From Candidatus Rokubacteria bacterium GWC2_70_16 (GTDB taxonomy: Bacteria; Methylomirabilota; Methylomirabilia; Rokubacteriales; CSP1-6), in contig MGBV01000099.1 of NCBI GenBank assembly GCA_001788415.1, positions 34,430 to 68,270 of the forward strand: a stretch of DNA of 33,841 nt. The letters run 5' to 3'. Below the pieces are notes generated by a model. That model made no database searches. It saw only the letters and a program-made list of their open reading frames with translations, and was not told the DNA's origin. Shown piece by piece: positions 546 through 16,959 of the stretch; positions within the stretch are counted from its first letter, which is position 1, and each line of letters begins with the position of its first letter. Position numbers and translations under genes: made by a program.

Positions 546-746
546 GTGTACATCGTCGCCATCGATCCTGAAGTCTGCAACGGCAACGGGGAATGCGTCC
601 AGGGATGCCCCGTGGCCATCCTGTCCGAAGAGGGCGAGGGCGACGAGAAGAAATGCGTCGTGAGCGGGGCCATAGCGGATTGCCTCGGCTGCATGGTCTG
701 CGTCGAGGTGTGCCCCACCGGCGCCATCAAGGTGGACGAGGTATAG
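546..746 (+). CDS. Small dicluster ferredoxin (probably 7Fe type)
   Basis: CNGNGECVQGCP and CLGCMVCVEVCP motifs; 66 aa; GGAG upstream of GTG start. Confidence 0.9.
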   Translation: MYIVAIDPEVCNGNGECVQGCPVAILSEEGEGDEKKCVVSGAIADCLGCMVCVEVCPTGAIKVDEV

Positions 747-751
747 GCGCA

Positions 752-2140
752 GTGCATATCCCCCGCCTGGTCATCTCAGCCCCCCATGGCCGGTCGGGCA
801 AGACCACCGTGGCGATAGGGCTGGCAGCCGCCTTCGCCCGGCGGGGGCTGAGGGTCCAGCCCTTCAAGAAGGGGCCGGACTACATCGACCCGAGCTGGCT
901 CGGCGAGGCCGCCGGCCGCCCCTGCCGGAACCTGGATCTCTTCCTGATGGATGCCGACAGGGCCCTGGAGACAGTGGCCTGCGCCTGCCAGTCGGCAGAC
1001 CTGGCCCTCGTCGAGGGCGCTCATGGCCTCTATGACGGGCTCGACGGGGACGGAGCCAATAGCACGGCCCGGCTGGCCAGGCTCCTCCAGGCGCCTGTCG
1101 TGCTCGTCGTGGACGCGACCCGGATGACCCAGAGCGTGGCCGCCCTGGTCCTGGGATTCCGGGACTTCGACCCCGGCGTCCAGCTCGCCGGCGTCATCGC
1201 GAACCAGGTGAGCAGCCCTCGCCACCGCGCCAAGCTGGCCGATGCCCTCGCCCGGCACACGGGCATCCCGCTCCTGGGCGCCCTGCCCCGGGACCCCTCG
1301 CTGTCGATCCCCGACCGCCACCTGGGGCTCGTCCCGAGAGACGAGGACGATGGGCTCCTCCCCGTGGTGGAGCGGGTCCGCGCCGCCGTGGAGGCCTCGG
1401 TGGACGTGGAGGCGCTGCTGGGTCTGGCCCGCGGCGCGCCGGCCCTGCCGGTGGGTCCGCATTGCCCTGAGCGAATGCCTCCCGCCCAGGTGAGGCTCGC
1501 CATCGCCAGAGACCGGGCCTTCACCTTCTACTACATGGAAAACATCGAGGCCCTGCGGGCGGCCGGGGCCGAGCTGGTCTGCCTGGACACGCTCGGGGAC
1601 GGGGCGCTTCCCGACGTCGACGGCCTGTACCTCGGCGGGGGCTTCCCGGAGATGTTCCTCGATGAGCTCGAGGCCAACGAGGCGCTCCGCGCGGACATCC
1701 GCGCAGCGGTTGGCGAGGGTCTGCCGGTCTATGCCGAGTGCGCGGGGCTCATGTACCTGGCTCGGCGCATCGCCTGGCGCGGCCGCTCGGCGGCCATGGT
1801 GGGGGCGCTGCCCTGCGACGTGGAGGTCACGGAAAGGCCCCAGGGGCACGGCTACGTGCGCGCGCGCGTCACGGGCGCGAACCCCTGCTTCCCGGTCGGG
1901 ACTGAGCTCCGCGGCCACGAGTTCCACTACTCCCGAGTGGTGAACCTGGGGCCGGCGCGCTTCGCCTATCGCCTGGAGCGCGGACAGGGCGTGGCCGACG
2001 GGCGGGACGGCCTGGTGGTGGGCAACGTGCTCGCCGCCTATACCCACCTGCACGCCGCCGGCACCGCGGGGTGGGCCGAGAGCCTCGTGGCCCAGGCGCG
2101 CGCCCACCAGGCCCGCCGGCCGGCCAGGGAGGCCCGATGA
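752..2140 (+). CDS. dsrN: Cobyrinate a,c-diamide synthase-like siroheme amidase DsrN
   Basis: GRSGKTT P-loop, FKKGPDYIDP, glutamine amidotransferase YAECAGLMYL and GHEFHYS; dsr operon context; GTG start at 752 inferred. Confidence 0.85.
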   Translation: MHIPRLVISAPHGRSGKTTVAIGLAAAFARRGLRVQPFKKGPDYIDPSWLGEAAGRPCRNLDLFLMDADRALETVACACQSADLALVEGAHGLYDGLDGDGANSTARLARLLQAPVVLVVDATRMTQSVAALVLGFRDFDPGVQLAGVIANQVSSPRHRAKLADALARHTGIPLLGALPRDPSLSIPDRHLGLVPRDEDDGLLPVVERVRAAVEASVDVEALLGLARGAPALPVGPHCPERMPPAQVRLAIARDRAFTFYYMENIEALRAAGAELVCLDTLGDGALPDVDGLYLGGGFPEMFLDELEANEALRADIRAAVGEGLPVYAECAGLMYLARRIAWRGRSAAMVGALPCDVEVTERPQGHGYVRARVTGANPCFPVGTELRGHEFHYSRVVNLGPARFAYRLERGQGVADGRDGLVVGNVLAAYTHLHAAGTAGWAESLVAQARAHQARRPAREAR

Positions 2141-2490
2141 AGATCGGGGTGATGGTCCAGGAGGGCCCGTATCAGCACCAGGCCTCCGACAGCGCCTGGG
2201 AGTTCGTCCAGGCGGCGCTCGCGCGGGGACACGAGGTCGTCGGCGTCTTCTTCTACACCGACGGCGTGCACAACGTGAACCGGTTCATGAACCCGCCGGG
2301 CGAGCGGGTGATCGGCAAGCGGTGGTCCGAGCTGGGGGCCCAGGGGGTGCCGCTGGTGGCGTGCGTCACCGACTCGACGTACCGGGGCGTCACCCAGGAG
2401 CTCGCCGTCGCCAACGTGAAGATCTCCGGGCTGGGCAGCCTGGCCGAGTTCATCCAGCAAGCCGACCGCTTCGTGACGTTCGGCGACTGA
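2137..2490 (+). CDS. dsrE: Sulfurtransferase complex subunit DsrE/TusD
   Basis: GPYQHQASDSA, VFFYTDGV, active-site Cys in LVACV, ISGLGSLAE...DRFVTFG; ATGA overlap with the dsrN stop. Confidence 0.92.
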   Translation: MKIGVMVQEGPYQHQASDSAWEFVQAALARGHEVVGVFFYTDGVHNVNRFMNPPGERVIGKRWSELGAQGVPLVACVTDSTYRGVTQELAVANVKISGLGSLAEFIQQADRFVTFGD

Positions 2491-2504
2491 GAGGGGGGAG
2501 CACA

Positions 2505-2813
2505 ATGAGGGGGGTCGGAGTTCTTGGCGTAACGCTTCTGGTTGTCCTTGCGTCGGTGGGCGTCTCGGCCCAGATGCCGATGGAACACAAAGGCACAATC
2601 TCGAAGATCGACACGAAGGCGAAGACCTTCGCCGTCAAGGACGAGAAGGGCAAGGAGGTGACGATGCACGCGGAGGATGTCAAGGCTTTGGCGGGCCTTC
2701 GGGTGGGTGACAAGGTCGTCGTGAAGATGACCGCGAAGGACGGGAAGAACATGGCCAAGGAGGTGCTGAAGGAAGCTACCGGACGGGCTCCCGCGCCTGG
2801 GTATGGAAAATGA
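2505..2813 (+). CDS. Small secreted Lys-rich beta-barrel (OB-fold-like) protein, possibly ExtJ-like partner of the cytochrome
   Basis: Signal peptide ending VSA; GTISKID...LRVGDKVVV pattern; GAGGGGGGAG RBS; ATG at 2505. Confidence 0.65.
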   Translation: MRGVGVLGVTLLVVLASVGVSAQMPMEHKGTISKIDTKAKTFAVKDEKGKEVTMHAEDVKALAGLRVGDKVVVKMTAKDGKNMAKEVLKEATGRAPAPGYGK

Positions 2814-2841
2814 CACGCTCCGCATTGCGAAGGAGGAAGTC

Positions 2842-4146
2842 ATGACGCCGCAATCCTCCGGCAAGACCGCCTGGGCCAGTGTCTCCTGGATCGGCGGACT
2901 CACCGTCTTGATGCTCGCTCTTCTCTCCCTTCCCGACGTCGCACTGGCTCAACAGAAAGCAAGAACGGTGGACGATCTCGCGAAGATGTACGACGTCGCC
3001 TCATGCAAGCAGTGCCACGCCAAGGTCTACGAGGAGTGGGAGAAGTCAACGCACGCGCGCTCCCTCATCGGAACCGGCCGGACCATCGGGGGATTCCAAG
3101 GAATGATCAGGGCCGGCCTCATGGGGGCATTCACGAAATCGGGGGTGAAGGATGTAGGGGACGTCAAAGTCGAGCACCTCGCGCAGTGTTTCAAGTGCCA
3201 TCTTCCGCAGATTTCGGATGCCACCGATGAGGTCGCGCGGGAACTCGTCAAGGCATACCTGGATGCTGATCGGGCCACGCTCGGCAAGGTCAACGTCAAC
3301 TGTCTCGTGTGCCACAACACGAAGGCGATTCTGCACAAGTGGCAGGATGGGGAGCCCGAGAAGGGCGTCGTCTACGGCTCCAAGGACGGTCCGCATCCCG
3401 ACAAGTACCCGGCGATGAAAAACAGCGTGGTCATGAAAGAGGCGGCGATGTGTGGCCAGTGCCACGGCACGGGGCCGAACTTCGAATTCCCGCAGCCTTC
3501 GCAGTGCGCGACCGCGTACGGGAGCTATCTCCACGCCTATATTCCCGCGGGCGGCACAGAGACGTGTCAGGACTGCCATATGAAGAAGGACGGCAAGGGG
3601 CACCTCATGCCCGCCTACCGCGACCCGGATATGGCGAAGAGGGCCGTGGATGTCGACGTGGAGGCGAGGGGATACAAGTTCCTGCTCAAGGCAGGGGACT
3701 CAATCCCGACAGCCGTGGTGACGGTGAAAATCACGAATAAGGCAGGGCATCGAATCCCTGATGGCTGACCCTCGCCCCAGAGAGCGGTCCTGGACGTGAC
3801 CGCGAAGACAAGCGATGGCAAAGAGATCTTCAGGGATTCAAAGATCTATATGCCGCAAGCCACCAATAGTCGTGGTGATGCGATGGTCTACGGGGCGCAC
3901 TTCAAGATGGGATATACCCGCGACACGAGCCTTCAGCCGCTTCAGACCAGGGTGGAGACCTACGAAATCAAGTTCCCGTATGAAGACGTCGAGAAGGAAA
4001 AGGGCAAACCCAGGGTGAGAGAGATACGGGCCAGGGAGATGGACGTGACGGTTGAGCTGCGGTACCAGCCTGATCCTGCGCCAGGTGAAGCGGGAAAGGA
4101 CAGTTTCGTTCTGCATAAGACGACGAAGAAAGTCAGCATCAAATAG
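2842..4146 (+). CDS. extKL: Periplasmic pentaheme cytochrome c selenoprotein (ExtKL-type), Sec at TGA 3766-3768 (residue 309 of 434)
   Basis: AGGAGG RBS then ATG 2842; signal peptide; five CxxCH (CKQCH, CFKCH, CLVCH, CGQCH, CQDCH); track ORFs 2803..3768 and 3796..4146 share a frame and are separated only by TGA in GHRIPDG*PSP; hairpin downstream. Confidence 0.85.
3784..3803 (+). promoter_or_regulatory. Putative bacterial SECIS element
   Basis: GCGGTC (3784-3789) pairs with GACCGC (3798-3803) around CTGGACGT, starting 15 nt after the in-frame TGA; C3790-G3796 pairing leaves apical loop UGGAC with G at position 2. Confidence 0.7.
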
Positions 4147-4164
4147 AGCGGCTGGGGGTGGTGT

Positions 4165-4587
4165 ATGGAAGATCTGTCGGGGCACGGTGAGCTCCAGGTG
4201 GAGCCCCGCGGGGCTCCACCGAAGAAGGTTTTGGTGCTGATGCGCAAGGCCCCTTATGGAACCCTCTACAACTGGGAGGGCCTGCAGGTGCTCCTCATCA
4301 TGGGGGCCTACAAGATGCAGGGTCTGGTGGACATCGCCGTGGCCTTCGTGGAGGACGGGGTCTTCGCGATCACCCAGGGGCAGGACCCGAGCAGCCTGGG
4401 GATGAAGGCGATCGCGAAGACCTACCCGGCGCTCCCGGACTTCGAGGTGGACCGCTTCTACGTCGACGGGCAGTCACTGGCCGATCGGAGCCTGACCCTG
4501 GATGACCTGGTGATCCAGCCCGAGATCCTCGACGCGGCGGGGATGGCCCGGCTCTTGGAGGAGCAGGACGCGGTCCTGCCGTTCTAG
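4165..4587 (+). CDS. dsrF: Sulfurtransferase complex subunit DsrF/TusC
   Basis: KKVLVLMRKAPYG...EGL, FVEDGVF, SLADRSL, ends DAVLPF; short N-terminal extension. Confidence 0.9.
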   Translation: MEDLSGHGELQVEPRGAPPKKVLVLMRKAPYGTLYNWEGLQVLLIMGAYKMQGLVDIAVAFVEDGVFAITQGQDPSSLGMKAIAKTYPALPDFEVDRFYVDGQSLADRSLTLDDLVIQPEILDAAGMARLLEEQDAVLPF

Positions 4588-4600
4588 AGGAGGCCGAGTG

Positions 4601-4894
4601 ATGCTCTTCACGGTGAACAAGTCGCCTTACCTGCACGGCAACCTGGAAGGCTGCCTGCGGCTGGCCCCGGCCGGGACGCCGCTCGTGCTCTACGAGGACG
4701 GGGTGTACGCGGCGGCGGCGGGCACGCGCGTGGAAGAGCTGATGCGCCAGGCCCTGGCCCGGCACCCCGTCTATGTGCTGGAAGCCGACCTCAGGGCCCG
4801 CGGGCTCGGGCGCCTGATCGAGGGCGTGCGGGTGATCGACTACGCGGGCTTCGTGGAGCTGGTGGAGCAGCATCCCGTGGTGCCCTGGCTGTGA
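4601..4894 (+). CDS. dsrH: Sulfurtransferase complex subunit DsrH/TusB
   Basis: MLFTVNKSP, LEGCLR, LYEDGVYAA, DLRARGL, IDYAGFVELV, ends WL; start is GTG 4598 or ATG 4601. Confidence 0.92.
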   Translation: MLFTVNKSPYLHGNLEGCLRLAPAGTPLVLYEDGVYAAAAGTRVEELMRQALARHPVYVLEADLRARGLGRLIEGVRVIDYAGFVELVEQHPVVPWL

Positions 4895-4930
4895 CAGGGA
4901 CCGGGCGGGCGGCGTAAGAGGAGAACGAGC

Positions 4931-6340
4931 ATGCTGGTGGTGCAGCTGGCGTGTCCCAAGTGCGGCTTCGTCATCGAGCAGTACCCGGCCGAGCAGCTCG
5001 AGACGGACTCCCAGAAGCAGAAGCGCTACCAGTACCTCCGGAAGAAGCAGACGCTCTGCCCGAGCTGCCTCACCCAGACCTCCAAGCTCGAGGAGCGCCG
5101 GGTGGAGGCCCAGGCCGGGGCCGAGGCGAGCGTGCTCGCGGCGGCCCAGGCGCCCGCCGAGGCCGGCGCCCCCGAGGCGGACGAGGGGCCGACGCCATTC
5201 TGCGACGAGCTCGGGCGGGGGCCCTGGCCGAGCCACGTGAGGGAGCTCAGGCGAACCCGCTACCACATGCAGATGTACGAGGAGGCCCTGAGGCTCCGCC
5301 AGACCCAGTGGGGCTTCGGCGGCTACGTCTCGCTGCCGGGGGTGGCCGCCGGGCTTGCGGTGCGCGCCTCGGCCCGCCCCGAGATCGCCAAGGGGGCCAA
5401 CTTCCTCCGGATCCTCCCTCCCGGCGGCAGCTTCTACTCCACCGAGACCCTCGGCAAGGTCTGCGACATCGCCGACCGCTACGCCTATGGCCTCCTGCAT
5501 CTGCACAGCACCGGCGGGAACATCGAGATCCTGGGGATCCCCACCGAGCAGCTCAAGGAGGTGGTCTCCGCCCTGAACGCCCAGGGGCTGGACGTGGGGT
5601 CCACCGGCGATGCCTACCGCAACACCGTGGAATGCGTCGGCCCGGCGCGCTGCGATGCGACCCTGATCGACACGCTCGGGATCCGCGACGCATGGTACCG
5701 GCGCTTCCTGGACGACGTGCAGTTCCCGCGCTTCCCCCACAAGCTCAAGATCAAGATCTCCGGCTGCCCTAACGACTGCACCCGCTCCGTCCAGAAGTCG
5801 TGCATCGCGCTCATCGGCGTCTTCCGCGACGCCCCGAAGATCGACCACGAGCGGCTGGCCGCCTGGGTCGAGGGGGGAGGCGACGCGGCCCACATCGCGC
5901 GGATGTGCCCGCCCCGGGCCCTTGACTGGGACGGGCGGCGGCTTGCGATCGACCAGGAGGCCTGCACCCACTGCATGTACTGCATCAACAAGTGCCCGGC
6001 CATCCGGCCGGGGGACGACCGCGGGGTGGCCGTGCTGGTGGGCGGGAAGCTCCGCGGCAAGTACGGCCCGCTCCTGGGACGGGTGCTGGTCCCCTTCGTT
6101 CCCTTGGCGCCGCCCGAGTACCGCGAGCTGTTCGACCTCCTCCACAGGATCGACGAGGTCTTCGACGAGCACGCCCGCCGGAAGGAGCGCCTGGGCGATT
6201 TCCTCTTCCGGATCGGGATGGACCAGTTCTCCCGGCTCGTGGGGATCGAGCCCTCGGCCCATCAGATGGCCGAGCCCCGGAGCAATGTCTTCTATCACTG
6301 GGCCGCCGGCCCGCCCGGCAGCGACGCGGCGGAGGTGTAG
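4931..6340 (+). CDS. dsrA: Dissimilatory sulfite reductase alpha subunit, copy 1 (divergent/basal type, N-terminal Cys4 extension)
   Basis: TPxCDELxxGPWPS, CVGPARC (CX5C) and GCPNDC (CX3C), FPHKLKIK, ferredoxin domain CTHCMYC, ERLGD, EPRSNVFY. Confidence 0.9.
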   Translation: MLVVQLACPKCGFVIEQYPAEQLETDSQKQKRYQYLRKKQTLCPSCLTQTSKLEERRVEAQAGAEASVLAAAQAPAEAGAPEADEGPTPFCDELGRGPWPSHVRELRRTRYHMQMYEEALRLRQTQWGFGGYVSLPGVAAGLAVRASARPEIAKGANFLRILPPGGSFYSTETLGKVCDIADRYAYGLLHLHSTGGNIEILGIPTEQLKEVVSALNAQGLDVGSTGDAYRNTVECVGPARCDATLIDTLGIRDAWYRRFLDDVQFPRFPHKLKIKISGCPNDCTRSVQKSCIALIGVFRDAPKIDHERLAAWVEGGGDAAHIARMCPPRALDWDGRRLAIDQEACTHCMYCINKCPAIRPGDDRGVAVLVGGKLRGKYGPLLGRVLVPFVPLAPPEYRELFDLLHRIDEVFDEHARRKERLGDFLFRIGMDQFSRLVGIEPSAHQMAEPRSNVFYHWAAGPPGSDAAEV

Positions 6341-6342
6341 CC

Positions 6343-7395
6343 ATGCCCGGAATCGGCGTCGCGCCAATGGAAGCGAATCTCCCTCCCATCGTGAGGCGCA
6401 ATTACGGCGCGTGGGTGTGGCACGAGGTGATCCGGCCCGGCGTCCTGAAGCACGTGTCGAAGAGCGGGGAGGCCTGCTTCACCGTGCGAGCGGGGATGCC
6501 CCCCAACGCCCGGGTGTCGACCGCGCTCGCCCGCCGGATCTGCGAGGTGGCCAACCGGTTCTGCGGCGGCTACCTCCGCATCACCCGGCGCCACAGCCTG
6601 GAGCTGGTGGGGGTGGCCGAGGCCGAGCTCGGCGCGGCGATCGCGGCGCTCCGCGAGATCGGGCTGGCGGTGGGGGGGGCCGATCGCACCTTCCACAACA
6701 TCGTCTGCTGCACGGGCTGGATCCATTGCCAGTTCGCCGCCACCGATGCGCCCGCCATCGCCAAGGCGATCTCGGACGGGCTCTGGGAGGATTTCCAGTC
6801 GGAGGGGTACCCGGCCAAGCTGAAGATCTCCATCGCCGCCTGTGTCAACCAGTGCGGCGAGGGCTCCACTGCCGACATCGGGGTGATCGGCATCCATCGC
6901 GACCTGCCGCGGGTCAACGACGCGGAGGTGGCGAAGTGCGAGGTGCCGCTGATCGTCTCCATCTGCCCCACCGGCGCCATCCGTCCGAAGCCCCCCAAGA
7001 GCGTGCAGGTGGACCCCAGGCGCTGCATCCACTGCGTGGCCTGCGTGGGGCAATGCGTCGGCATGCCCATCGGGGACCCCGAGACCGACGGCGTGGCGAT
7101 CTACGTCGGCGGCAAGGCCGGCAACCAGGGGAGCGGCCCCGCCTTCGGCAAGCTGGCGATCCCGTATCTGCCCAACCGCCCGCCGCGCTGGCCGGAGGTC
7201 GTCCAGGCCGTGACGGGCATCATCGGGGTGTGGACGAAGGGGGCCCGGAGGGACGAGCGCATCGGCGACTGGATCAGCCGGATCGGCTGGGAGCGCTTCT
7301 TCGACAAGACAGGGCTGCCGGTGAGCGACAAGCACCTGGACGGCTATGTCCTCTGGCCCATGGCGGCGCGCACCGGGGTGCGGTTCCGCTGGTAG
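6343..7395 (+). CDS. dsrB: Dissimilatory sulfite reductase beta subunit, copy 1
   Basis: LPPIVRRNYGAW..HE...PGVLKHV, GWIHC, CVNQCG, CIHCVAC, PPRWPE, RIGWERFF; ATG 6343 after GGAGG. Confidence 0.92.
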   Translation: MPGIGVAPMEANLPPIVRRNYGAWVWHEVIRPGVLKHVSKSGEACFTVRAGMPPNARVSTALARRICEVANRFCGGYLRITRRHSLELVGVAEAELGAAIAALREIGLAVGGADRTFHNIVCCTGWIHCQFAATDAPAIAKAISDGLWEDFQSEGYPAKLKISIAACVNQCGEGSTADIGVIGIHRDLPRVNDAEVAKCEVPLIVSICPTGAIRPKPPKSVQVDPRRCIHCVACVGQCVGMPIGDPETDGVAIYVGGKAGNQGSGPAFGKLAIPYLPNRPPRWPEVVQAVTGIIGVWTKGARRDERIGDWISRIGWERFFDKTGLPVSDKHLDGYVLWPMAARTGVRFRW

Positions 7396-7443
7396 GCCAA
7401 CCCCGCGCATGACGGGAGGGGACACGGTGAGGAGAGAGCGACG

Positions 7444-8856
7444 ATGCTGATGGTGCAGCTGGCCTGTCCCAGGTGCGGCTTCGTCATCGAGCAGTACGGG
7501 GCCGCCCAGCTGGAGGCGGACACCCAGAAGCAGAAGCGCTACCAGTACCTCAGGAAGAAGCAGACCCTCTGCCCGAGCTGCCTCAGCCAAACCGCCAAGC
7601 TCGAGGAGCGCCGGGTGGAGGTGGAGGCTGGGCCCCAGGCCGAGCTCATGGCCGAGGCCGAGGCGCCGCCCGAGGCGGTACCTGCGGGCGAGGCCGTCGC
7701 GCCGACGCCGCTATGCGACGAGCTGGAGCGCGGGCCCTGGCCCAGCCACGTGACCGAGCTCAAGCAGACGCGGTACCACATGCAGATGTACGAGGAGGGC
7801 CTCCGCCAGAAGCGAACCCAGTGGGGGTTCGGCGGTTACACCTCGATTCCCGGTGTGGCCTCCGGGATCCTCATGCGGGCCTCGGCCCGGCCCGACATCG
7901 CCAAGGGCGCCAACCTGGTCCGCGCCTTCTGTCCCAGCGGGACGTTCTACTCCACGCAGACCTTCCGGGCCCTCTGCGACGTGGCGGACCGCCACGGCTA
8001 CGGCATCCTGCACCTCCATGCCACGACCTGCGACATCGAGGTCCTGGGGGTGCCCAAGGAGGAGCTCCGGGCGACGGTGGACGAGCTGGTGGCGGCCGGC
8101 CTGGACGTGGGCTCCACCGGGGATGCCTACCGCAACTGCCAGGAGTGCATCGGCCCCTTGCGCTGCGAGATGGTCCTGGTGGACTCGGTGGCCATGCGCC
8201 AGGCCTACTTCACGCGCTTCCTGGACGACGTCCAGTACCCGCGCTTCCCCCACAAGATCAAGTTCAAGCTCTCGGGGTGCCCCAACGACTGCACGCGCTC
8301 GCAGCAGAAGGGGGACATCGCCATCGTCGGGGTGTTCCGGGATCCGCCGACGATCGACGCGGCCCGGCTCGAGGGCTGGGTCGCTGGGGGCGGGGACATC
8401 GCCCACATCGTCAGGATGTGCCCGACGCGAGCCATGGAGTGGGACGGCCGGCGGCTGGCCATCGACGCCGACGGCTGCGTCCGCTGCATGTACTGCATCA
8501 ACAAGTGCCCGGCCGTCCGCCCGGGGGGCGATCGCGGCGTGGCCGTCCTGGCCGGCGGCAAGATGCGGGGCAAGTATGGGCCCCTCCAGCCCTTCGTCAT
8601 CGCGCCATTCGTCCCCGCCGTCCCGCCGGACTTCACGGAGGTCTTCGACCTCTGCGCCAAGATCACCGATGTCTACGACGAGCACGCGCGCCGCAAGGAG
8701 CGGCTGGGGGACTTCATCTACCGCACGGGGATCGACCAGTTCTGCCGCCTGGTCGGCGTGCCGTCGGCCCCTCAGCAGATGGTCTCTCCCCGCATCAATC
8801 CCTTCTACCACTGGACGCCCGAAGAGCTGCAGGCCTCCCGGAAGGAGGCCGACTGA
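7444..8856 (+). CDS. dsrA: Dissimilatory sulfite reductase alpha subunit, copy 2
   Basis: Collinear paralog of 4931..6340; CIGPLRC and GCPNDC, FPHKIKFK, CVRCMYC. Confidence 0.9.
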   Translation: MLMVQLACPRCGFVIEQYGAAQLEADTQKQKRYQYLRKKQTLCPSCLSQTAKLEERRVEVEAGPQAELMAEAEAPPEAVPAGEAVAPTPLCDELERGPWPSHVTELKQTRYHMQMYEEGLRQKRTQWGFGGYTSIPGVASGILMRASARPDIAKGANLVRAFCPSGTFYSTQTFRALCDVADRHGYGILHLHATTCDIEVLGVPKEELRATVDELVAAGLDVGSTGDAYRNCQECIGPLRCEMVLVDSVAMRQAYFTRFLDDVQYPRFPHKIKFKLSGCPNDCTRSQQKGDIAIVGVFRDPPTIDAARLEGWVAGGGDIAHIVRMCPTRAMEWDGRRLAIDADGCVRCMYCINKCPAVRPGGDRGVAVLAGGKMRGKYGPLQPFVIAPFVPAVPPDFTEVFDLCAKITDVYDEHARRKERLGDFIYRTGIDQFCRLVGVPSAPQQMVSPRINPFYHWTPEELQASRKEAD

Positions 8857-9908
8857 TGCCGGGCGTCGGCCTCCCCCCGCTCGAACGGAACCTGCCGCCC
8901 ATCGTCCTCCGCAACTACGGCAAGTGGCTGGACCACGAAGAGCCGAGACCGGGCGTCCTCAAGCATGTGGCCGAGAGCGGCGAGGCATGCTACACCGTGC
9001 GCGCCGGGATGCCGACGAATGCGCGGGTCTCCACCACGCTCGCCCGCAAGATCGCGGACCTCGCGGACGACTTCGCCGGCGGGCACCTGCGCCTGACCCG
9101 GCGCCACAGCCTGGAGCTGGTCGGAGTGGACCCGGCCCGGATCGACGAGCTGATCGAGCGGCTCCGGGGTCTCGGGCTGCCCGTGGGCGGCACCGGCCGG
9201 ACATTCCGCAACACGGTGTCCTGCACCGGCTGGATCCACTGCCAGTTCGCTGCCACCGATGCCCCGGCGGTGGCCAAGGCCATCTCCGACGAGCTGTACG
9301 AGGACTTCCTCACCGAGCGCTACCCGGCCAAGCTCAAGATCTCCATCTCCGGCTGCGTGAACCAGTGCGGCGAGGGGTCCACCGCCGACATCGGGATCGT
9401 CGGCATCCACCGGGACCTGCCCCGGGTCATCGACGAGGAGGTGGCCCGCTGCGAGATCCCGCTGATCGTCTCGGTCTGCCCCACCGGCGCCATCAGGCCC
9501 AAGCCGCCGAAGAGCGTCCAGGTGGATCCCGAGCGCTGCATCCACTGCGTGGCCTGCGCCGCGCCGTGCCAGGGGATGCAGATCGGCGACCCCGACACCG
9601 ACGGCGTCGCGGTCGTGGTTGGCGGCAAGGCGGGCAACTCGGGGAACGGCCCGGCCTTCGCCAAGTTCGTGATCCCCTACCTCCCGAACAGCCCGCCGCG
9701 CTGGCCCGAGGTCACGCGGGCGGTGAGGCAGATCGTGGAGGTGTGGGTGAAGGGAGCCCGGCGGGACGAGCGGATCGGCGACTGGATCGCGCGGATCGGC
9801 TGGGACAAGTTCTTCGAGAAGGCCGGGCTGCCGATGAGCGACAAGCTCCTCGACGGCTACGTCCTCTGGCCCATGTCGGCCCGTACCGGGGTGCGGTTCC
9901 ACTGGTAG
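8856..9908 (+). CDS. dsrB: Dissimilatory sulfite reductase beta subunit, copy 2
   Basis: TGATG overlap with dsrA2; NYGKW, CTGWIHC, GCVNQCG, PPRWPE, RIGWDKFF. Confidence 0.92.
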   Translation: MPGVGLPPLERNLPPIVLRNYGKWLDHEEPRPGVLKHVAESGEACYTVRAGMPTNARVSTTLARKIADLADDFAGGHLRLTRRHSLELVGVDPARIDELIERLRGLGLPVGGTGRTFRNTVSCTGWIHCQFAATDAPAVAKAISDELYEDFLTERYPAKLKISISGCVNQCGEGSTADIGIVGIHRDLPRVIDEEVARCEIPLIVSVCPTGAIRPKPPKSVQVDPERCIHCVACAAPCQGMQIGDPDTDGVAVVVGGKAGNSGNGPAFAKFVIPYLPNSPPRWPEVTRAVRQIVEVWVKGARRDERIGDWIARIGWDKFFEKAGLPMSDKLLDGYVLWPMSARTGVRFHW

Positions 9909-9941
9909 CTCAGGTCCCTCGCACGAGAGGAGAGAACGGCC

Positions 9942-10259
9942 ATGGCGACGGTAGAGCTCGAAGGCAAGACGATGGAGCTGGACGAGGATGGGTTCCTGCA
10001 GAATCCGGATCTCTGGTCCGAGACGGTGGCCCAGTACTTCGCCGACCAGGAGGGGCTGGGGCAGCTCACGGACGAGCACTGGAAGGTGGTGAAGATGATC
10101 CGCGGCTACTACCTGCAGTTCGGCGTCGCCCCCATGATCCGCAAGGTCGTCAAGGACACCGGCTTCGACCTCAAGTACATCTACCAGCTCTTCCCCTCGG
10201 GGCCGGCCAAGGGGGCCTGCAAGGTCGCCGGGCTCCCCAAGCCCACGGGCTGCGTGTAG
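9942..10259 (+). CDS. dsrC: Sulfur carrier DsrC with both C-terminal cysteines
   Basis: DEDGFL, LTDEHW, LFPSGPAKGACKVAGLPKPTGCV (CX10C). Confidence 0.97.
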   Translation: MATVELEGKTMELDEDGFLQNPDLWSETVAQYFADQEGLGQLTDEHWKVVKMIRGYYLQFGVAPMIRKVVKDTGFDLKYIYQLFPSGPAKGACKVAGLPKPTGCV

Positions 10260-10275
10260 GCGGGCGGAGGCTCGG

Positions 10276-10851
10276 GTGACGCTGCCCGCGGGCGCCCGCG
10301 CGGCGGGCGGGCCAGGTCTCGAGGCGCTGGCGGCACGGCGGAGCGCCATTGCCGGCCGGTGGCTGGCGCTGACGCTCGAGGGCTACCCGGCCCCCACCGC
10401 GCGCCTGCTGGCGCGCGAGACGGACCCCTTCCGCAACCCCGTCGGGCACACCCTCAGGCAGGCGCTGTCTGGCCTCGCGGAGGAGCTTGTCGGGGCCATG
10501 GACCCCGCCAGGGTCGCCGCCCTCCTGGACAGCGTCGTGAGGATCCGCGCCGTCCAGGACGTGAGCGCGAAGGAGGCGGTGAGCTTCGTGTTCCTGGCCA
10601 GGCAGGCCCTTCGCGAAGAGATCGACAGCGGCGGGGGACTGCCGGCCGGAGACGGGCTGGCGGCCGTGGAGGCGCGGGTCGACGAGATGGCGCTCTCGGC
10701 CTTCGACCTGTTCATGCGCTGCCGCGAGCAGATCCACGCGATCCGGGCCGACGAGGCCCGACGCCGGACGGCTCTCCTGGACCGCATCCGCGAGCGGGCC
10801 GGCCGGCCCGGGAGCGAGCCCGCCGGGGCGGACCCGGGAACTGCGCCGTGA
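10276..10851 (+). CDS. dsrT: DsrT (RsbRD N-terminal-domain protein)
   Basis: W...YP, DPFRNPVG, VRIRAVQD, AVSFVF, AFDLFMRCRE; directly upstream of dsrM. Confidence 0.88.
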   Translation: MTLPAGARAAGGPGLEALAARRSAIAGRWLALTLEGYPAPTARLLARETDPFRNPVGHTLRQALSGLAEELVGAMDPARVAALLDSVVRIRAVQDVSAKEAVSFVFLARQALREEIDSGGGLPAGDGLAAVEARVDEMALSAFDLFMRCREQIHAIRADEARRRTALLDRIRERAGRPGSEPAGADPGTAP

Positions 10852-11842: not shown

Positions 11843-13462
11843 ATGGCGGAAGAGGCCCCGGCCCCCGCGCAGCTCGCGCAGGTCGACTACCGGCCGCCGG
11901 CGCGGGACTGGCGGGAGGCCGCCGTCGACTTCCGCAAGGGGACCTACTGCTACAGCGCCGCGCCCAAGAACCTCCAGTACCTGGGGCTGCCCAATCCGCG
12001 ACCGTGGCAGCCCCACGACGCGGACTGGAAGCTCCCCCCCGACTGGAAGCAGACCATCCTCGCGGGCATGAAGGACAGGCTCGAGCGCTTCCGGTCCTTC
12101 CGCCTGTTCATGGACATCTGCGTGCGCTGCGGGGCCTGCGCCGACAAGTGCCACTTCTACCTCGGCACCGGCGACCCCAAGAACATGCCGGTGTTGAGGG
12201 CCGAGCTGATGCGCTCGGTGTACCGGCGCTACTTCACCCTGCCCGGCCGGCTGCTGGGCGGGCTCGCGGGCGGGCGGGAGCTCACCGAGGACGTGCTCAA
12301 GGAGTGGTTCTACTACTACCACCAGTGCACGGAGTGCCGCCGCTGCTCGGTCTTCTGCCCCTTCGGGATCGACACGGCGGAAGTGACCATGATGGGGCGC
12401 GAGCTGCTGACCCTGGTGGGCTGCAACATCAACTGGATCCTCGAGCCGGCGGCGAATTGCTACCGGACGGGCAACCACCTCGGGATCCAGCCCCATGCCT
12501 TCAAGGACAGCGTCGACTTCGCCGTGGACGAGCTGGAGGAGATGACCGGCATCCGCGTGGAGGCTCCCATCAACAAGAAGGGCGCCGAGATCCTGTACGT
12601 GATCCCGTCGGCGGAGACCTTCGGGACGCCCCACTACTACACGCTCCTGGGCACGCTGCTCCTCTTCCACGCCATCGGTCTGGACTACACGCTCAGCGCG
12701 TATGCCTCCGAGGGCGGCAACTTCGGCCTCTTCACCTCCCACGAGGTGATGAAGCGGCTGAACGCCAAGATCTACGCCGAGGCCCGGCGGCTGGGGGTCA
12801 AGTGGATCCTCGGCGGCGAGTGCGGCCACATGTGGCGCGTCGTGCACCAGTACATGGACACCATGAACGGCCCGGCGGACTTCCTGGAGGAGCCCGTCTC
12901 GCCGGTGACGGGCACGCGGTTCGAGCAGGCGCGGTCCACGAAGATGGTGCACATCTGCGAGTTCACGGCCGATCTCATCCGCGAGGGCAAGCTCCGGCTC
13001 GACCCCCGGCGGAACGACCACTGGGTCGCGACCTTCCACGACTCCTGCAACCCGGCCCGGGCCATGGGGCTCCTCGAGGAGCCGCGCTACATCCTCCGGA
13101 GCGTGTGCCAGCGCTTCCACGAGATGCCCGAGAGCACCATCCGGGAGCGGACCTTCTGCTGCGGCAGCGGGTCGGGTCTCGGCACGGACGAGAATTTCGA
13201 GATGCGCATGCGGGGCGGCTTCCCCCGGGCCAATGCCGTGAGGCATGTGCAAGACCGGTTCGGCGTGAACCTGGTGGCGTGCATCTGCGCCATCGACAAG
13301 GCCACGCTCCCGCCGCTCCTGGAGTACTGGGTGCCGGGGATGAACGTGGCCGGCGTGCACGAGCTCGTGGGCAATGCCCTCGTGGTCGACGGCGAGAAGG
13401 CGCGGACCCAGGACCTGCGCGGCCAGCCCCTGGTCTCGCCGGAGGCACCCGCCGGTGCGTGA
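11843..13462 (+). CDS. dsrK: DsrK, HdrD-like Fe-S protein
   Basis: CVRCGACADKCH, CTECRRCSVFCP, GECGH, FHDSCN, FCCGSG; ATG at 11843. Confidence 0.95.
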   Translation: MAEEAPAPAQLAQVDYRPPARDWREAAVDFRKGTYCYSAAPKNLQYLGLPNPRPWQPHDADWKLPPDWKQTILAGMKDRLERFRSFRLFMDICVRCGACADKCHFYLGTGDPKNMPVLRAELMRSVYRRYFTLPGRLLGGLAGGRELTEDVLKEWFYYYHQCTECRRCSVFCPFGIDTAEVTMMGRELLTLVGCNINWILEPAANCYRTGNHLGIQPHAFKDSVDFAVDELEEMTGIRVEAPINKKGAEILYVIPSAETFGTPHYYTLLGTLLLFHAIGLDYTLSAYASEGGNFGLFTSHEVMKRLNAKIYAEARRLGVKWILGGECGHMWRVVHQYMDTMNGPADFLEEPVSPVTGTRFEQARSTKMVHICEFTADLIREGKLRLDPRRNDHWVATFHDSCNPARAMGLLEEPRYILRSVCQRFHEMPESTIRERTFCCGSGSGLGTDENFEMRMRGGFPRANAVRHVQDRFGVNLVACICAIDKATLPPLLEYWVPGMNVAGVHELVGNALVVDGEKARTQDLRGQPLVSPEAPAGA

Positions 13463-13850
13463 CCGGGGTTTGCTGGTCGGCGGCCTGGCCCTCTTCGTGG
13501 CCGTGATCACCTTCCCGGTCTGGTACAACGTCGCCGCCGGGACGCCCACGCGGGGCCCCGAGCCCGTGCGCCCCGCCGGGACCGGGCGCTGCGTTGGGCC
13601 CACGGAGTACATGCGCGCTTCCCACATGAGCCTGCTCATGGCGTGGCGCGACGACGTGGTGCGAGGGCAGGACCGCAACTTCGTGGGCCCCGACGGGAAG
13701 ACCTACGCCAAGAGCCTCACGCGCACCTGTCTCGGCTGTCACACCAGCAAGGCGGAGTTCTGCGACCGCTGCCACGACTACGGCGCCGTGAAGCTCACCT
13801 GCTGGGAGTGCCACATCGACCCCGCCTCACTCCGGAAGGCTCAGCGATGA
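13455..13850 (+). CDS. dsrJ: DsrJ triheme cytochrome c
   Basis: N-terminal TM helix, CV...YMRASHM..L..WRDDVVR, CLGCH, CDRCH, CWECH; GGAGG then GTG 13455. Confidence 0.92.
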   Translation: MRDRGLLVGGLALFVAVITFPVWYNVAAGTPTRGPEPVRPAGTGRCVGPTEYMRASHMSLLMAWRDDVVRGQDRNFVGPDGKTYAKSLTRTCLGCHTSKAEFCDRCHDYGAVKLTCWECHIDPASLRKAQR

Positions 13851-14614
13851 GCATGGATCGCCGGGCTTTCCTGGGCGCGGCCGGGCTCTCCGCGCTGGCC
13901 ATGACCGGGACCCAGTCCCTCGAGGCCCTGGCCGGCGCCGGCCGCCCGGAGACAACGCCCGAGGGGCGCCGCGCCCCGCGCTGGGGCATGGTCATCGATC
14001 TGCGGAAATGCCTCGAGGACCGGGGCTGCACCGATTGCATCGCCGCCTGCGAACGCGCGCACAACGTGCCGCGGCTCGAGTCGCGGGCCCACGAGGTGAA
14101 GTGGATCTGGCGGGAGCCCTACGAGCGGGCCTTCGCCCAGCGCGGGAGCGGGTACGGGGACGAGGCCCTCAGGGGCAAGCGCGTCCCCGTGCTCTGCAAC
14201 CACTGCGACAATCCCCCGTGCGTGCGCGTGTGCCCCGTCAAGGCCACGTGGAAGCGGGGAGACGGCATCGTCATGATGGACTGGCACCGCTGCATCGGCT
14301 GCCGCTACTGCATGGCGGCCTGTCCCTACGGGGCGCGGAGCTTCAACTGGCTCGACCCGCGCCCCCGGGTCAAGGAGGTGAACCCGGATTTCCCCACGCG
14401 GACCAGAGGGGTCGTCGAGAAATGCAACTTCTGCGAGGAGCGGCTCGCCCAGGGGCGCGGGCCGGCCTGCGTGGAGGCGTGCCGGGAGCGGGCCCTGACT
14501 TTCGGGGACCTGCGGGACCCCGGCTCGGAGGTGCGCGGGCTCTTGCGGAGCCGTCACGCCATGAGGCGGAAGCCCGAGCTCGGCACCGAGCCGAGCGTCT
14601 ACTACCTGGCATGA
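13847..14614 (+). CDS. dsrO: DsrO periplasmic Fe-S protein
   Basis: Tat signal DRRAFLG, RWGMVIDL, CNHCDNPPCVRVCP, CIGCRYCMAACP, KCNFC. Confidence 0.93.
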   Translation: MSMDRRAFLGAAGLSALAMTGTQSLEALAGAGRPETTPEGRRAPRWGMVIDLRKCLEDRGCTDCIAACERAHNVPRLESRAHEVKWIWREPYERAFAQRGSGYGDEALRGKRVPVLCNHCDNPPCVRVCPVKATWKRGDGIVMMDWHRCIGCRYCMAACPYGARSFNWLDPRPRVKEVNPDFPTRTRGVVEKCNFCEERLAQGRGPACVEACRERALTFGDLRDPGSEVRGLLRSRHAMRRKPELGTEPSVYYLA

Positions 14615-14632
14615 GGAGGCAGGGAGGCGGCC

Positions 14633-15832
14633 GTGCTTGACAAGGGGCTCAGTGGGGGCGGGCGGTACTGGGCCTGGCTCGGCGCCCTGGCCGCGCTGAT
14701 CGTCGCGGGCGCGCTGGCCTACCAGCGGCAGCTCACGCTGGGGCTGGGGATCACGGGGCTGAGCCGGGATGTGACCTGGGGTCTCTACATCGCCCAGTTC
14801 ACCTTCCTGGTCGGGGTCGCGGCCTCGGCCGTCGTGGTGGTCCTGCCCTATTACCTGCACGACTACCGCGTCTTCGGCAAGATCACGATCCTCGGCGAAT
14901 GCCTCGCCGTCTCCGCCGTGGCCATGTGCCTGCTCTTCGTCTTCGTGGACATGGGCCAGCCCGCGCGCGCGCTGAACGTGCTCCTGTACCCGACGCCCAA
15001 CTCCATCATGTTCTGGGACATGCTCGTGCTCGCCGGCTACCTGGCGCTCAACGCCGTCATCGCCCGGGCCACGCTCTCGGCCGAGCACCGGGGCGTGCCG
15101 CCGCCCCGGTGGCTCCGGCCCGTCATCGTGCTCTCCATTCCCTGGGCCGTCAGCATCCACACGGTCACGGCGTTCCTGTACAGCGGGCTCCCCGGACGGC
15201 ACCTGTGGCTGACCGCGCTCCTGGCGCCGCGCTTCCTCGCCTCGGCCTTCGCCTCGGGGCCCGCCCTGCTGATCCTCCTGGCCATGCTCCTCCGCCGACT
15301 CACGGGCTTCGACGTCGGCCGGGAGGCCCTCCAGAAGCTCGGGCTGATCGTCGCCTACACGATGACCGTCAACGTGTTCTTCGTGCTGGTGGAGCTCTTC
15401 ACGGTCTTCTACAGCCAGGCGCCCGAGGCGATGCACCACTTCGAGTTCCTGTTCCTCGGACTCGAGGGCCAGGCGGGGCTGGTCCCGTGGATGTGGGCCT
15501 CGGTGGTCCTGGCCATGATGTCGCTGGGCCTGCTCCTCACGCCGCGCTGCCGCCAGGACATGCGGCTCCTGGCCGCCGCCTGCGCCATGGTGTTCGCCTC
15601 GCTGTGGATGGACAAGGGCCTCGGCCTCATCGTCGGCGGCTTCGTGCCCTCGCCCCTGGGAGAGGTGACGGGCTACGCCCCGACGCTGCCGGAGGTCGCC
15701 ATCGCGCTCGCCATCTGGGCCGTGGGCTCGCTGCTGGCCACCGTGCTCTTCAAGGTCGTCGCCGCCGTGAGGGGGGAGCCGAGTGGCCCCGACCCCCACT
15801 CCCGCTGGGCCCGGGCCCCCGTCGAGCCATGA
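14633..15832 (+). CDS. dsrP: DsrP, NrfD/PsrC-family membrane protein
   Basis: TGLSRDVTWGLYIAQFTFLVGVAA, SIPWAVSIHTVTAFL, RFLASAF; polytopic hydrophobic protein. Confidence 0.93.
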   Translation: MLDKGLSGGGRYWAWLGALAALIVAGALAYQRQLTLGLGITGLSRDVTWGLYIAQFTFLVGVAASAVVVVLPYYLHDYRVFGKITILGECLAVSAVAMCLLFVFVDMGQPARALNVLLYPTPNSIMFWDMLVLAGYLALNAVIARATLSAEHRGVPPPRWLRPVIVLSIPWAVSIHTVTAFLYSGLPGRHLWLTALLAPRFLASAFASGPALLILLAMLLRRLTGFDVGREALQKLGLIVAYTMTVNVFFVLVELFTVFYSQAPEAMHHFEFLFLGLEGQAGLVPWMWASVVLAMMSLGLLLTPRCRQDMRLLAAACAMVFASLWMDKGLGLIVGGFVPSPLGEVTGYAPTLPEVAIALAIWAVGSLLATVLFKVVAAVRGEPSGPDPHSRWARAPVEP

Positions 15833-16329: not shown

Positions 16330-16959
16330 ATGGGCAGCTATCCGGTGTGCCTCGAGCTTGCGGGCCAGCCCTGTCTCGTCATCGGCGGCGGGCCCGTCGC
16401 GGAGCGGAAGGTCGAGGGCCTCCTGGCCGCGGGGGCGGCGGTGACCGTCGTGAGCCCTTCGCTGACGGCCGGCCTGGCGGCCCTGGCCCGCGGGGGGCGG
16501 ATCCGCCACCTGCCGCGCGAGTACGGGCCCGGGGATGTGGCCGGAAACCGGCTCACCCTTGCCGCCACCGGGAAGCGCGAGGTCGATGCGGCAGCCAGCC
16601 GCGAGGGCCGCGAGCGCGGCGTCTGGGTCAATGCCGCGGATGCTCCCGATCTTTGCGACTTCACCCTCCCGGCGGTGCTCCGTCGCGGTGACCTCGTGGT
16701 GGCCGTGTCCACCGGGGGGGCGAGCCCCGCGCTGGCGCGAGCGGTCAGGGAGGAGCTCGAGGGCCACCTCCCCGAAGCGTATGCCGCGCTCGCCGACATC
16801 GTCGCCGAGGTCAGGCGGGAGCTGAGGCAGCGCGCCTGCTCCCCCGGCGGAGAGGCGTGGCGCCAGGCTCTCGACGCCGATCTCCGCCGGCTGGTCGCGG
16901 AGGGACGACGGGCGGAGGCGAAGGCCAGGCTCCTGGCGAGGCTCGCCCCATGCCCGTAG
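16330..16959 (+). CDS. Precorrin-2 dehydrogenase / sirohydrochlorin ferrochelatase (CysG N-terminal / SirC-like)
   Basis: YPVCL, VIGGGPVAERK, VNAAD.P.LCDF..PA, AVSTGGASP. Confidence 0.9.
   Translation: MGSYPVCLELAGQPCLVIGGGPVAERKVEGLLAAGAAVTVVSPSLTAGLAALARGGRIRHLPREYGPGDVAGNRLTLAATGKREVDAAASREGRERGVWVNAADAPDLCDFTLPAVLRRGDLVVAVSTGGASPALARAVREELEGHLPEAYAALADIVAEVRRELRQRACSPGGEAWRQALDADLRRLVAEGRRAEAKARLLARLAPCP

Follow-up and report, generated by a model that had tools for sequence, protein, structure and literature searches.

Why should one operon carry the genes for dissimilatory sulfite reductase (DsrAB) twice? The enzyme serves as the standard marker both of sulfite/sulfate reducers and of sulfur oxidisers. 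The question is raised by a stretch of 33,841 nucleotides (nt), here called the window, from the groundwater genome Candidatus Rokubacteria bacterium GWC2_70_16 (GenBank assembly GCA_001788415.1, contig MGBV01000099.1, positions 34,430 to 68,270 of the forward strand; G000:C99 in our numbering), in which one dsrAB pair stands directly in front of another. We consider it likely that the locus is a tandem of two anciently diverged dsrAB pairs in one operon, that the pairs encode partly redundant isoenzymes, and that the arrangement is unstable by recombination. The genes concerned are the following.

4931..6340, + strand: dsrA1, 'type 1' alpha subunit, 469 amino acids (aa), with an 86-aa N-terminal zinc-ribbon extension including a linker; Pfam and TIGR matches
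6343..7395, + strand: dsrB1, 'type 1' beta subunit, 350 aa, with an MPGIG start inside open reading frame (ORF) 5992-7395; TIGR02066, 368 bits
7396..7443, + strand: B1-A2 spacer, 48 nt, with a ribosome-binding-like GGAG tract
7444..8856, + strand: dsrA2, 'type 2' alpha subunit, 470 aa, with the same N-terminal extension as dsrA1
8856..9908, + strand: dsrB2, 'type 2' beta subunit, 350 aa; TIGR02066, 387 bits

As an initial annotation of the sequence had claimed, the two pairs (A1B1, 4931-7395; A2B2, 7444-9908) are both intact. The four ORFs contain no stops or frameshifts, and the units are direct repeats with a start-to-start spacing of 2513 throughout. A search of the genome for DsrA/DsrB-like proteins returned only these four genes. 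The same annotation stressed the equal length of the units. Both do measure 2465 bp; however, A2 is one codon longer than A1, A2 and B2 overlap by 1 nt whereas A1 and B1 are separated by 2 nt, and the units of the related tandem contig L023 measure 2471 and 2459 nt, so the equality is accidental. In ungapped comparison, A1 and A2 are identical at 306 of 458 positions (67%) and B1 and B2 at 262 of 350 (75%). The differences counted by hand in the annotation were exact: residues 91-240 of A share 100 of 150 positions (50 differences), and residues 1-100 of B share 68 of 100 (32 differences).

The siroheme-[4Fe-4S] cysteines reported in the annotation were found complete in all four proteins: CX5C (position 235 in A1 and A2, 123 in B1 and B2), CX3C (279 in A, 167 in B), CP (326 in A, 208 in B) and the CX2CX2CX3C of the ferredoxin insert (345 in A, 228 in B). 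All four proteins match Pfam NIR_SIR and NIR_SIR_ferr. With the DsrB model TIGR02066, B1 and B2 scored 368.1 and 386.9 bits, above the cut-off of 341.5. With the DsrA model TIGR02064, A1 and A2 scored 326.1 and 333.3 bits, below the cut-off of 392.85; this was still their best model (E = 1e-97 and 1e-99). We take A1 and A2 to be divergent DsrA proteins, as expected for a deep-branching clade. The context is that of a DsrAB system, with dsrA followed directly by dsrB, and with dsrC and dsrMK(JOP) in the genome.

Comparison with the solved DsrAB structures of Archaeoglobus fulgidus (3mm5) and Desulfovibrio vulgaris (2v4j) revealed homology over the whole core (A1, E = 1.3e-74; B1, E = 4e-89) and conservation of the cluster and ferredoxin-insert cysteines. 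The window's proteins differ from the solved ones in that DsrA has an additional 86-residue N-terminal zinc ribbon and linker, and DsrB has a complete CX5C (CTGWIHC), whereas both solved beta chains have T at the first position. The motifs noted earlier as atypical, GPWPSHV..EL..TRY and RITRRHSLE, are present and do differ from the A. fulgidus and D. vulgaris chains in alignments. Where the A. fulgidus chain has Arg or Lys in ..MRI.., ..LRT.. and ..YKFKIK.., residues with a role in sulfite binding, both A1 and A2 have an aligned R or K. Near the clusters the types differ in motif: A2 has YRNCQEC and A1 YRNTVEC, and B1 has CCTGW, with an extra adjacent Cys, where B2 has SCTGW.

Two pairs in series could be produced by assembly or binning, if alleles from type-1-only and type-2-only strains had been stitched head to tail. 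The source is a metagenome-assembled genome (MAG) of 4.70 Mb in 309 contigs, 87% complete and with 5.3% contamination; single-type strains exist naturally; and related strains co-occur in public sequencing runs, with contigs that carry 3-13 mismatches over the type 2 unit. However, the same B1-A2 joint occurs in four other contigs from other assemblies, and Logan contigs matching both units exactly were found in 4 runs of 4 studies. The joint of the window itself is bridged with 0 mismatches by a 231-nt Logan contig (7273-7503). Because the order recurs in other contigs and a contig spans B1-A2, an artefact is very unlikely, and we give that explanation almost no credence. The tandem is real and recurs in at least two Rokubacteriales lineages. 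The public-run data consist of short Logan contigs, which permit no depth ranking of the units and leave most joints unbridged. Two candidate 'skip' joints (6869>7990 and 7381>8451) had sides of only 21-23 nt and were treated as paralogue or strain cross-matches.

The relatives were compared by a tblastn search of every fetched locus with the ten operon proteins, after which the gene ends were read. The order dsrH-A1-B1-A2-B2(-dsrC) was found in four contigs besides the window, and other loci have a single unit between dsrH and dsrC.

L023: complete tandem; dsrF, H, A1-type, B1-type, A2-type, B2-type
L027: tandem; A1-type truncated at the contig end, with B1, A2, B2, C, T, M, K following
L018: tandem; B1-type truncated at the contig end, with A2, B2, C, T, M, K following
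L024: dsrF, H, A1, B1 and, at the contig end, the initial 81 nt of a further A gene
L005 (genome G003, of the window's genus), the L006/L016 group and L019: type 2 only
L025 and L026: type 1 only

L006 and L016 gave identical values and were counted once, together with the near-identical L028-L030. L031 and L037 are cut short, and their unit content was not assigned. The database loci nearest to the window (L016, L018 and L019) come from records titled Candidatus Rokubacteria or Rokuibacteriota. The B1-A2 spacer of L023 is 13 nt long, a length conserved within that lineage group. Orthologues of A1 in L023-L027 and L031 are 81-87% identical to it. A2 is 97% identical to the single DsrA of G003 and 92.5% to that of L016, and B2 is 96% identical to the DsrB of both. 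Since strains occur in nature with one or the other pair alone and an unchanged set of neighbours, we take the pairs to be at least partly interchangeable; either pair alone evidently suffices in some strains.

A scan of the phylum revealed a DsrB match at E<=1e-80 in 14 of 251 species genomes. Five of these belong to the window's family (f1): two, G000 and G204, have two copies, and G002, G003 and G228 have one each. In the other nine (G046-G063, family f7, genus g61; loci L044-L050), DsrB is 45-47% identical to B1. The phylum Methylomirabilota holds at least one further, more distant dsrAB lineage.

How do strains come to differ in the number of units? One tract of dsrA is of particular interest in this regard.

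4931..5110, + strand: 5' tract of dsrA1 (zinc-ribbon codons 1-60), ~90% identical in nt to dsrA2 7444-7623; putative recombination substrate

Windowed nt identity between A1 and A2 is 0.89-0.92 over the zinc-ribbon codons, vs ~0.70 in the gene body. In G003, whose locus is 96% identical in nt to the window over A2, the one dsrA gene agrees with A1 at 11 of the 13 informative sites as far as nt 147, and beyond it with A2 at 324 of 341. The best breakpoint lies at nt 147-151 (Fisher p=6.5e-12, uncorrected for the choice of breakpoint), and the G003 protein has V3, P19 and S27 in common with A1 alone. At the other end of the unit, the dsrB of L025 and L026 is B1-like through nt 999 and then switches to the B2 type at nt 1044, in its TGA stop and in the spacer that leads to dsrC; B1 and B2 of this lineage share their last ~57 nt except for the site at nt 1044. 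Over the type 1 unit, L025 is 97-98% identical in nt to the tandem contigs L024 and L027. The L026 locus has a peculiarity of its own: its type 1 dsrA (385-1790) matches A1 in two frames (residues 1-62 and 85-469), which suggests a frameshift or indel in the linker, or an assembly error.

The loci thus display the signs of tandem paralogues resolved by unequal homologous recombination, namely repeats in register, relatives with a single unit, and chimeras that break in the most similar tracts. Between strains ~2-4% apart in nt, the difference is precisely one unit, with its joint in the tract of highest similarity; we read this as deletion by this route. The pattern points to loss of a unit as the origin of the single-unit relatives, with the direction of the event a matter of interpretation. 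The first 180 nt of dsrA and the last ~50 nt of dsrB, as the most similar stretches, would be the sites where recombination removes exactly one unit. Such a crossover would yield type-2-only strains with a chimeric dsrA (A1 5' end joined to A2), or type-1-only strains with a chimeric dsrB (B1 body joined to the B2 end). The tandem itself was probably inherited from the common ancestor of the two Rokubacteriales lineages.

Ongoing gene conversion in the 5' 180 nt of A1 and A2 was considered and is not claimed. Orthologues are equally similar there, the tract is rich in two-fold-degenerate codons, and GC content at third codon positions (GC3) is 0.95. Codon identity at identical residues is 0.90 between the paralogues and 0.88-0.90 between orthologues; the high 5' similarity is therefore attributable to codon usage.

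Phylogenetic analysis was used to examine the age of the two types. The concatenated DsrAB tree has 24 rows; it excludes L022 because of a frameshift, L031 and L037 because they have A alone or are cut, and L036 because its B is unusable. The DsrA tree has 73 rows, which include P0001-P0040, P0066-P0073 and five shorter outgroup proteins from the 120 homologues listed; near-duplicates (L028-L030, L033 and L035) were dropped. The DsrB tree has 79 rows. Canonical reductive and oxidative bacterial Dsr were outside these trees, and the separation from them is judged by identity (<=50%) and by the papers cited below. Types 1 and 2 form separate clades in every tree, with support of 99 and 100 for DsrA (both values starred, i.e. 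passing the threshold of the program), 99/98 and 100/100 for the concatenated proteins (starred) and 99 and 100 for DsrB (both starred). Both lie in a starred clade together with Rokubacteria- and Chloroflexota-titled sequences, and the next relatives carry the names Verrucomicrobia and Planctomycetota. The split between the types appears to be about as old as their split from the Chloroflexota-titled (Anaerolineae) sister clade. The closest non-Rokubacterial DsrAB are those of L021 and L017, at 64-72% identity; the labels Anaerolineae and Anaerolineales are record titles. In L021, dsrF and dsrH lie ~4.3 kb upstream of dsrA and not directly before it.

The initial annotation had called the duplication old. 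The split is indeed old, given the separate supported clades and the orthologues in other Rokubacteria contigs; duplication as its origin is not established, because the trees conflict. DsrA gives a three-way polytomy of type 1, type 2 and the Chloroflexota-titled clade. In the careful concatenated tree, type 1 joins the Chloroflexota-titled rows L017 and L021, with an ultrafast bootstrap of 94 and an SH-like approximate likelihood ratio (SH-aLRT) support of 91, below the star threshold. In the DsrB tree, the two types are sisters (SH-aLRT 85). An approximately unbiased (AU) test does not reject a single clade of all Rokubacterial sequences (log-likelihood difference 5.53, p=0.09).

Type 1 may thus be a xenologue, acquired from or exchanged with a Chloroflexota-like lineage and inserted before a native type 2. 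This account concerns origin only, and under it both pairs may work. Besides the concatenated tree, it is favoured by the higher identity of A1 to the L021 DsrA (70%) than that of A2 (64%), and the accessible text of PMC10591310 lists Methylomirabilota among the taxa thought to have gained dsrAB laterally more than once. However, the two single-gene trees and the AU test do not side with it, both types share the N-terminal extension, the operon slot and a GC3 of 0.95-0.96, and the Chloroflexota labels are titles of MAG contig records only. We regard transfer as possible but tentative. Both in-lineage duplication and acquisition of a xenologue are compatible with the trees (AU p=0.09).

To which extent are both pairs maintained? 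The ratio of nonsynonymous to synonymous substitution (dN/dS) was estimated by NG86, as YN00 gave no estimate for 20 of 26 pairs. Within the window, the ratio between paralogues is 0.45 for A1 vs A2 and 0.32 for B1 vs B2, with dS ~0.55, near the ceiling imposed by a GC3 of 0.95. Between orthologues, it is 0.23-0.29 for type 1 (window vs L023, L024, L025 and L027) and 0.09-0.16 for type 2 (window vs L005, L016, L019, L023 and L027). The comparison with L023 gave the following values.

A1, window vs L023: dN 0.100, dS 0.413, ratio 0.24
A2, window vs L023: dN 0.052, dS 0.348, ratio 0.15
B1, window vs L023: dN 0.095, dS 0.421, ratio 0.23
B2, window vs L023: dN 0.041, dS 0.335, ratio 0.12

The similar dS of the two types fits co-divergence since an ancestor that already had the tandem. 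The roughly twofold higher dN of type 1 at similar dS fits a weaker yet clear constraint on that type. Of the DsrA columns conserved at >=90% in 97 other members of the clade (135 in total), type 1 departs at 2 (R28Q and R52K) and type 2 at 3 (R28Q, R52K and Y397F). For DsrB, 60 others define 100 columns conserved at >=90%; type 1 keeps every one of them, whereas type 2 departs at 2 (C67A and H118R). The types are separated by 75 fixed differences in DsrA and 33 in DsrB. With orthologue ratios well below 1 and nearly all family-conserved columns kept, the view in the annotation that both copies are maintained holds.

These values also bear on whether one pair, most likely type 1, is redundant under relaxed constraint and on its way to loss, with type 2 alone functional. 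The higher dN of type 1 would agree with that, as would its terminal branch in the window (0.14, vs 0.01 for type 2, in the concatenated tree), its absence from G003, the L016 group and L019, and a private R175G of A1 at a column conserved at >=90%. However, its dN/dS is far under 1, A1B1 has no stop or frameshift, and departures from the conserved columns are as few as given above. In addition, L025 and L026 retained type 1 and lost type 2, and relatives of the type 1 DsrB occur at 84-91% identity in other samples. We consider decay of one pair quite improbable and favour two maintained pairs.

The pairs lie in what reads as one operon, in the order dsrN-E-(cytochrome)-F-H-A1B1-A2B2-C-T-M-K-J-(O)-P on the + strand. 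The remaining features are as follows.

593..2140, + strand: dsrN-like gene, cobyrinic acid a,c-diamide synthase family (NCBIfam CobB family, 471 bits); the name dsrN is suggested by operon context
2143..2481, + strand: dsrE (G000:C99:36572-36910; TIGR03012, 96.5 bits, above cut-off)
2803..4146, + strand: multiheme c-type cytochrome, ExtKL-like, possibly a selenoprotein, between dsrE and dsrF (Pfam cytochrome c7, paired CXXCH)
4165..4587, + strand: dsrF, TusC-like (Pfam DsrE/DsrF; TIGR03010, 93.9 bits vs a cut-off of 94.15)
4598..4894, + strand: dsrH (Pfam DsrH, 88 bits; TIGR03011, 87.6 bits)
9942..10259, + strand: dsrC, C-terminus ...CKVAGLPKPTGCV (Pfam DsrC, 133 bits; TIGR03342, 122.9 bits)
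10276..10851, + strand: dsrT-like gene, RsbRD_N domain (Pfam PF14361, 58 bits), named after the Rokubacteria DsrT in the available part of PMC6018805
10848..13462, + strand: dsrM and dsrK, starts approximate (NCBIfam DsrM, 488 bits, and DsrK, 717 bits, both above cut-offs)
13374..13850, + strand: dsrJ (NCBIfam DsrJ, 139.7 bits)
14008..14640, + strand: candidate ORF in the dsrO position, without an NCBIfam match at E<=1e-5
14633..15832, + strand: dsrP (NCBIfam DsrP, 447.6 bits)
16330..17729, directly after the dsr cluster: two siroheme-synthesis genes, a CysG N-terminal-domain-like precorrin-2 dehydrogenase/ferrochelatase and a uroporphyrinogen-III C-methyltransferase

Besides the enzyme, the locus therefore encodes cofactor synthesis at one end (16330-17729) and amidation at the other (the dsrN-like gene). 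The window has a GC content of ~70%, and the GC3 of dsrA1, dsrB1, dsrA2 and dsrB2 is 0.95-0.96. A simple scan of 2000-11000 gave no promoter-like site; the terminator-like sites in it number 3, a chance level, and are confined to the minus strand, with none between the units on the + strand. The cytochrome gene has an in-frame TGA at 3766-3768 (codon 322, ...HRIPDG-U-PSP...); read as selenocysteine (U), it gives one frame of 448 residues. Beyond the TGA, the product has a match to the C-terminal end of the NCBIfam ExtKL (seleno)protein model (E=3e-24), and the genome has selA (573 bits). In a search for a selenocysteine insertion sequence, a hairpin 16 nt downstream of the TGA folded no better than shuffled sequences (z=-1.33). 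The aprA gene was found elsewhere in the genome. DsrD (PF08679) had no match in the 87%-complete genome; control genomes gave none either, which makes this a weak negative.

The dsrE, dsrF and dsrH genes were all found in the window, and a whole-genome search gave a single match to the dsrC/tusE family. The single DsrC proposed in the annotation is thus borne out for the 87% of the genome that is represented. Both pairs would be transcribed with the rest of the operon, each would assemble a siroheme-[4Fe-4S] dissimilatory sulfite reductase, and both would share the one DsrC, DsrMKJOP and DsrEFH. Two isoenzymes, as proposed in the annotation, are plausible; the mixed heterotetramers also suggested there are hypothetical.

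The mixed accessory gene set would also fit a division of labour, in which one pair works reductively (sulfite to sulfide) and the other oxidatively, or on another substrate or in another redox regime. The fixed differences between the types are in keeping with this, as are the type-specific changes near the cluster motifs (YRNCQEC/YRNTVEC and CCTGW/SCTGW, and the lack of the conserved C67 and H118 in B2). The operon combines dsrEFH with dsrC, T and MKJOP, and the Rokubacteria system is called mosaic or chimeric in the available portions of PMC6018805 and PMC10504309. However, type-1-only (L025 and L026) and type-2-only loci (L005, L016 and L019) keep the same dsrF/H and dsrC/T neighbours, so neither type is tied to a particular accessory set, and both types keep nearly all family-conserved columns. 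We consider a division of labour unlikely. Its direction-specialised form, in which one isoenzyme would reduce sulfite and the other would oxidise DsrC-bound sulfur delivered by DsrEFH, is distinctly unlikely. Partial redundancy of the two isoenzymes remains our preferred reading.

Both DsrA proteins share a further property. Residues 1-86 (4931-5188 and 7444-7701) are an addition without counterpart in the solved DsrA chains, since in a search of solved structures A1 residue 87 aligns with residue 3 of the A. fulgidus protein. The extension consists of a zinc-ribbon-like mini-domain followed by a poorly conserved linker rich in Ala, Glu and Pro. C8, C11, C43, C46, K31, R32, Y35, L36 and K39 are invariant in 61 aligned sequences. 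It was also found in 64 of the 120 homologues listed (coverage >=97% of A1), including proteins named Chloroflexi, Verrucomicrobia and Planctomycetota. In an AlphaFold2 model, the predicted local distance difference test score was 76-86 over most of residues 1-60 and 33-37 in the linker. A protein atlas search with residues 1-62 returned only unnamed small proteins and DUF2197, with scores of 0.90-0.91 and few shared features, and a literature search for an N-terminal zinc ribbon in DsrA found no paper. The lineages that carry this zinc ribbon are without detectable dsrD.

Several points weigh against a maintained, redundant and recombining tandem. The GC3 of 0.95-0.96 compresses dS and YN00 was unusable for most pairs, so that the dN/dS values are rough. 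The type 1 pair evolves ~2 times as fast as type 2 and could be the more dispensable, and three type-2-only lineages (G003, the L016 group and L019) lack it. The redundancy is deduced solely from the existence of single-type relatives. As the genome is 87% complete, another dsrC may lie elsewhere. The public sequencing runs that hold the stretch are 20 DNA runs of 9 studies, with no RNA run among them, and co-transcription and translation are predicted from the gene layout. The G003 crossover could be run in reverse, as insertion of a unit into the window's lineage; deletion is favoured because of the similar dS of the two types, the presence of the tandem in two lineages, and the ease of intrachromosomal loss.

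The enzyme lineage itself has been described. The papers compared here were available in part, and what follows on them extends to those parts. Rokubacteria DsrAB were reported to form a new deep-branching lineage, in which the operon is mosaic, dsrEFH are present and dsrD is absent (PMC6018805; Anantharaman et al. 2018), a clade since named 'basal type II DsrAB' (PMC12948486, 2026). The A2B2 pair of the window is 90-97% identical to the DsrAB of L016 and L018, which places it in the Rokubacteria/Verrucomicrobia/Hydrothermarchaeota lineage of PMC6018805, type 2 being the form that Rokubacteria genomes published so far have shown. The window's operon resembles that lineage also in its dsrEFH, dsrC, dsrT and dsrMKJOP. 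It differs in that the operons there have one dsrAB, whereas here a second pair, 67/75% identical, lies directly upstream, with a copy number that varies among close relatives. The main texts of PMC6018805, PMC10591310, PMC10504309, PMC8780371 and PMC12948486 do not mention a 'tandem' dsrAB; a second copy could appear in their figures or in the supplements, most of which were outside the scope. The string 'duplicat*' occurs 0 times in the text of PMC6018805 and PMC12948486, and in PMC10504309 only for the ancient DsrA/DsrB and DsrN duplications; PMC10591310 was not searched for it. Mentions of 'copies' or 'paralog' in the texts concern these ancient duplications, Moorella and other taxa, and none concerns Rokubacteria. 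A supplementary file of PMC12948486 has 'Methylomirabilota' three times, and the two rows seen are single rows for separate genomes.

Multiple dsrAB pairs are known from other organisms. Moorella thermoacetica likewise has two diverged pairs per genome, both detected in a proteome (PMC10504309). Its copies lie in different regions, with different histories and neighbours, whereas those of the window stand next to each other in a single operon, fall in one deep clade and have all their accessory genes in common. Diverged dsrAB of more than one kind also occur together in MAGs of the candidate phylum CG2-30-53-67 and of Myxococcota_B (GCA_003598065; PMC10591310). In Myxococcota_B, one pair is of reductive and one of oxidative type, on separate contigs and each with its own accessory genes; the available text describes no head-to-tail arrangement for these two-type MAGs. 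What is new in Rokubacteria is the gene organisation: two old paralogous dsrAB pairs in tandem, both conserved and with presence/absence polymorphism, in an enzyme lineage already known.

This organisation matters for how dsrAB sequences are read. Marker-gene surveys would count one cell with two 67-75%-identical pairs as two organisms. Old paralogy followed by differential loss mimics lateral transfer, and offers an alternative for part of the 'multiple lateral acquisitions' that PMC10591310, as far as its text was available, proposes for Methylomirabilota. Single-type and tandem strains differ by only 2-4% in nt, and the recombinant junctions reveal how such loci alter copy number. If the pairs were direction-specialised, one Rokubacteria cell could run Dsr either way, or disproportionate sulfur, by shifting flux, and strains that have lost a unit would be locked into one lifestyle; the interest of the locus would be higher if the two pairs prove functionally specialised. 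The DsrAB lineage to which the tandem belongs is among the earliest to branch, and its physiological direction is debated; A1B1, A2B2 and the single-pair strains constitute a natural experiment that could reveal which sequence changes matter for direction or partner use.

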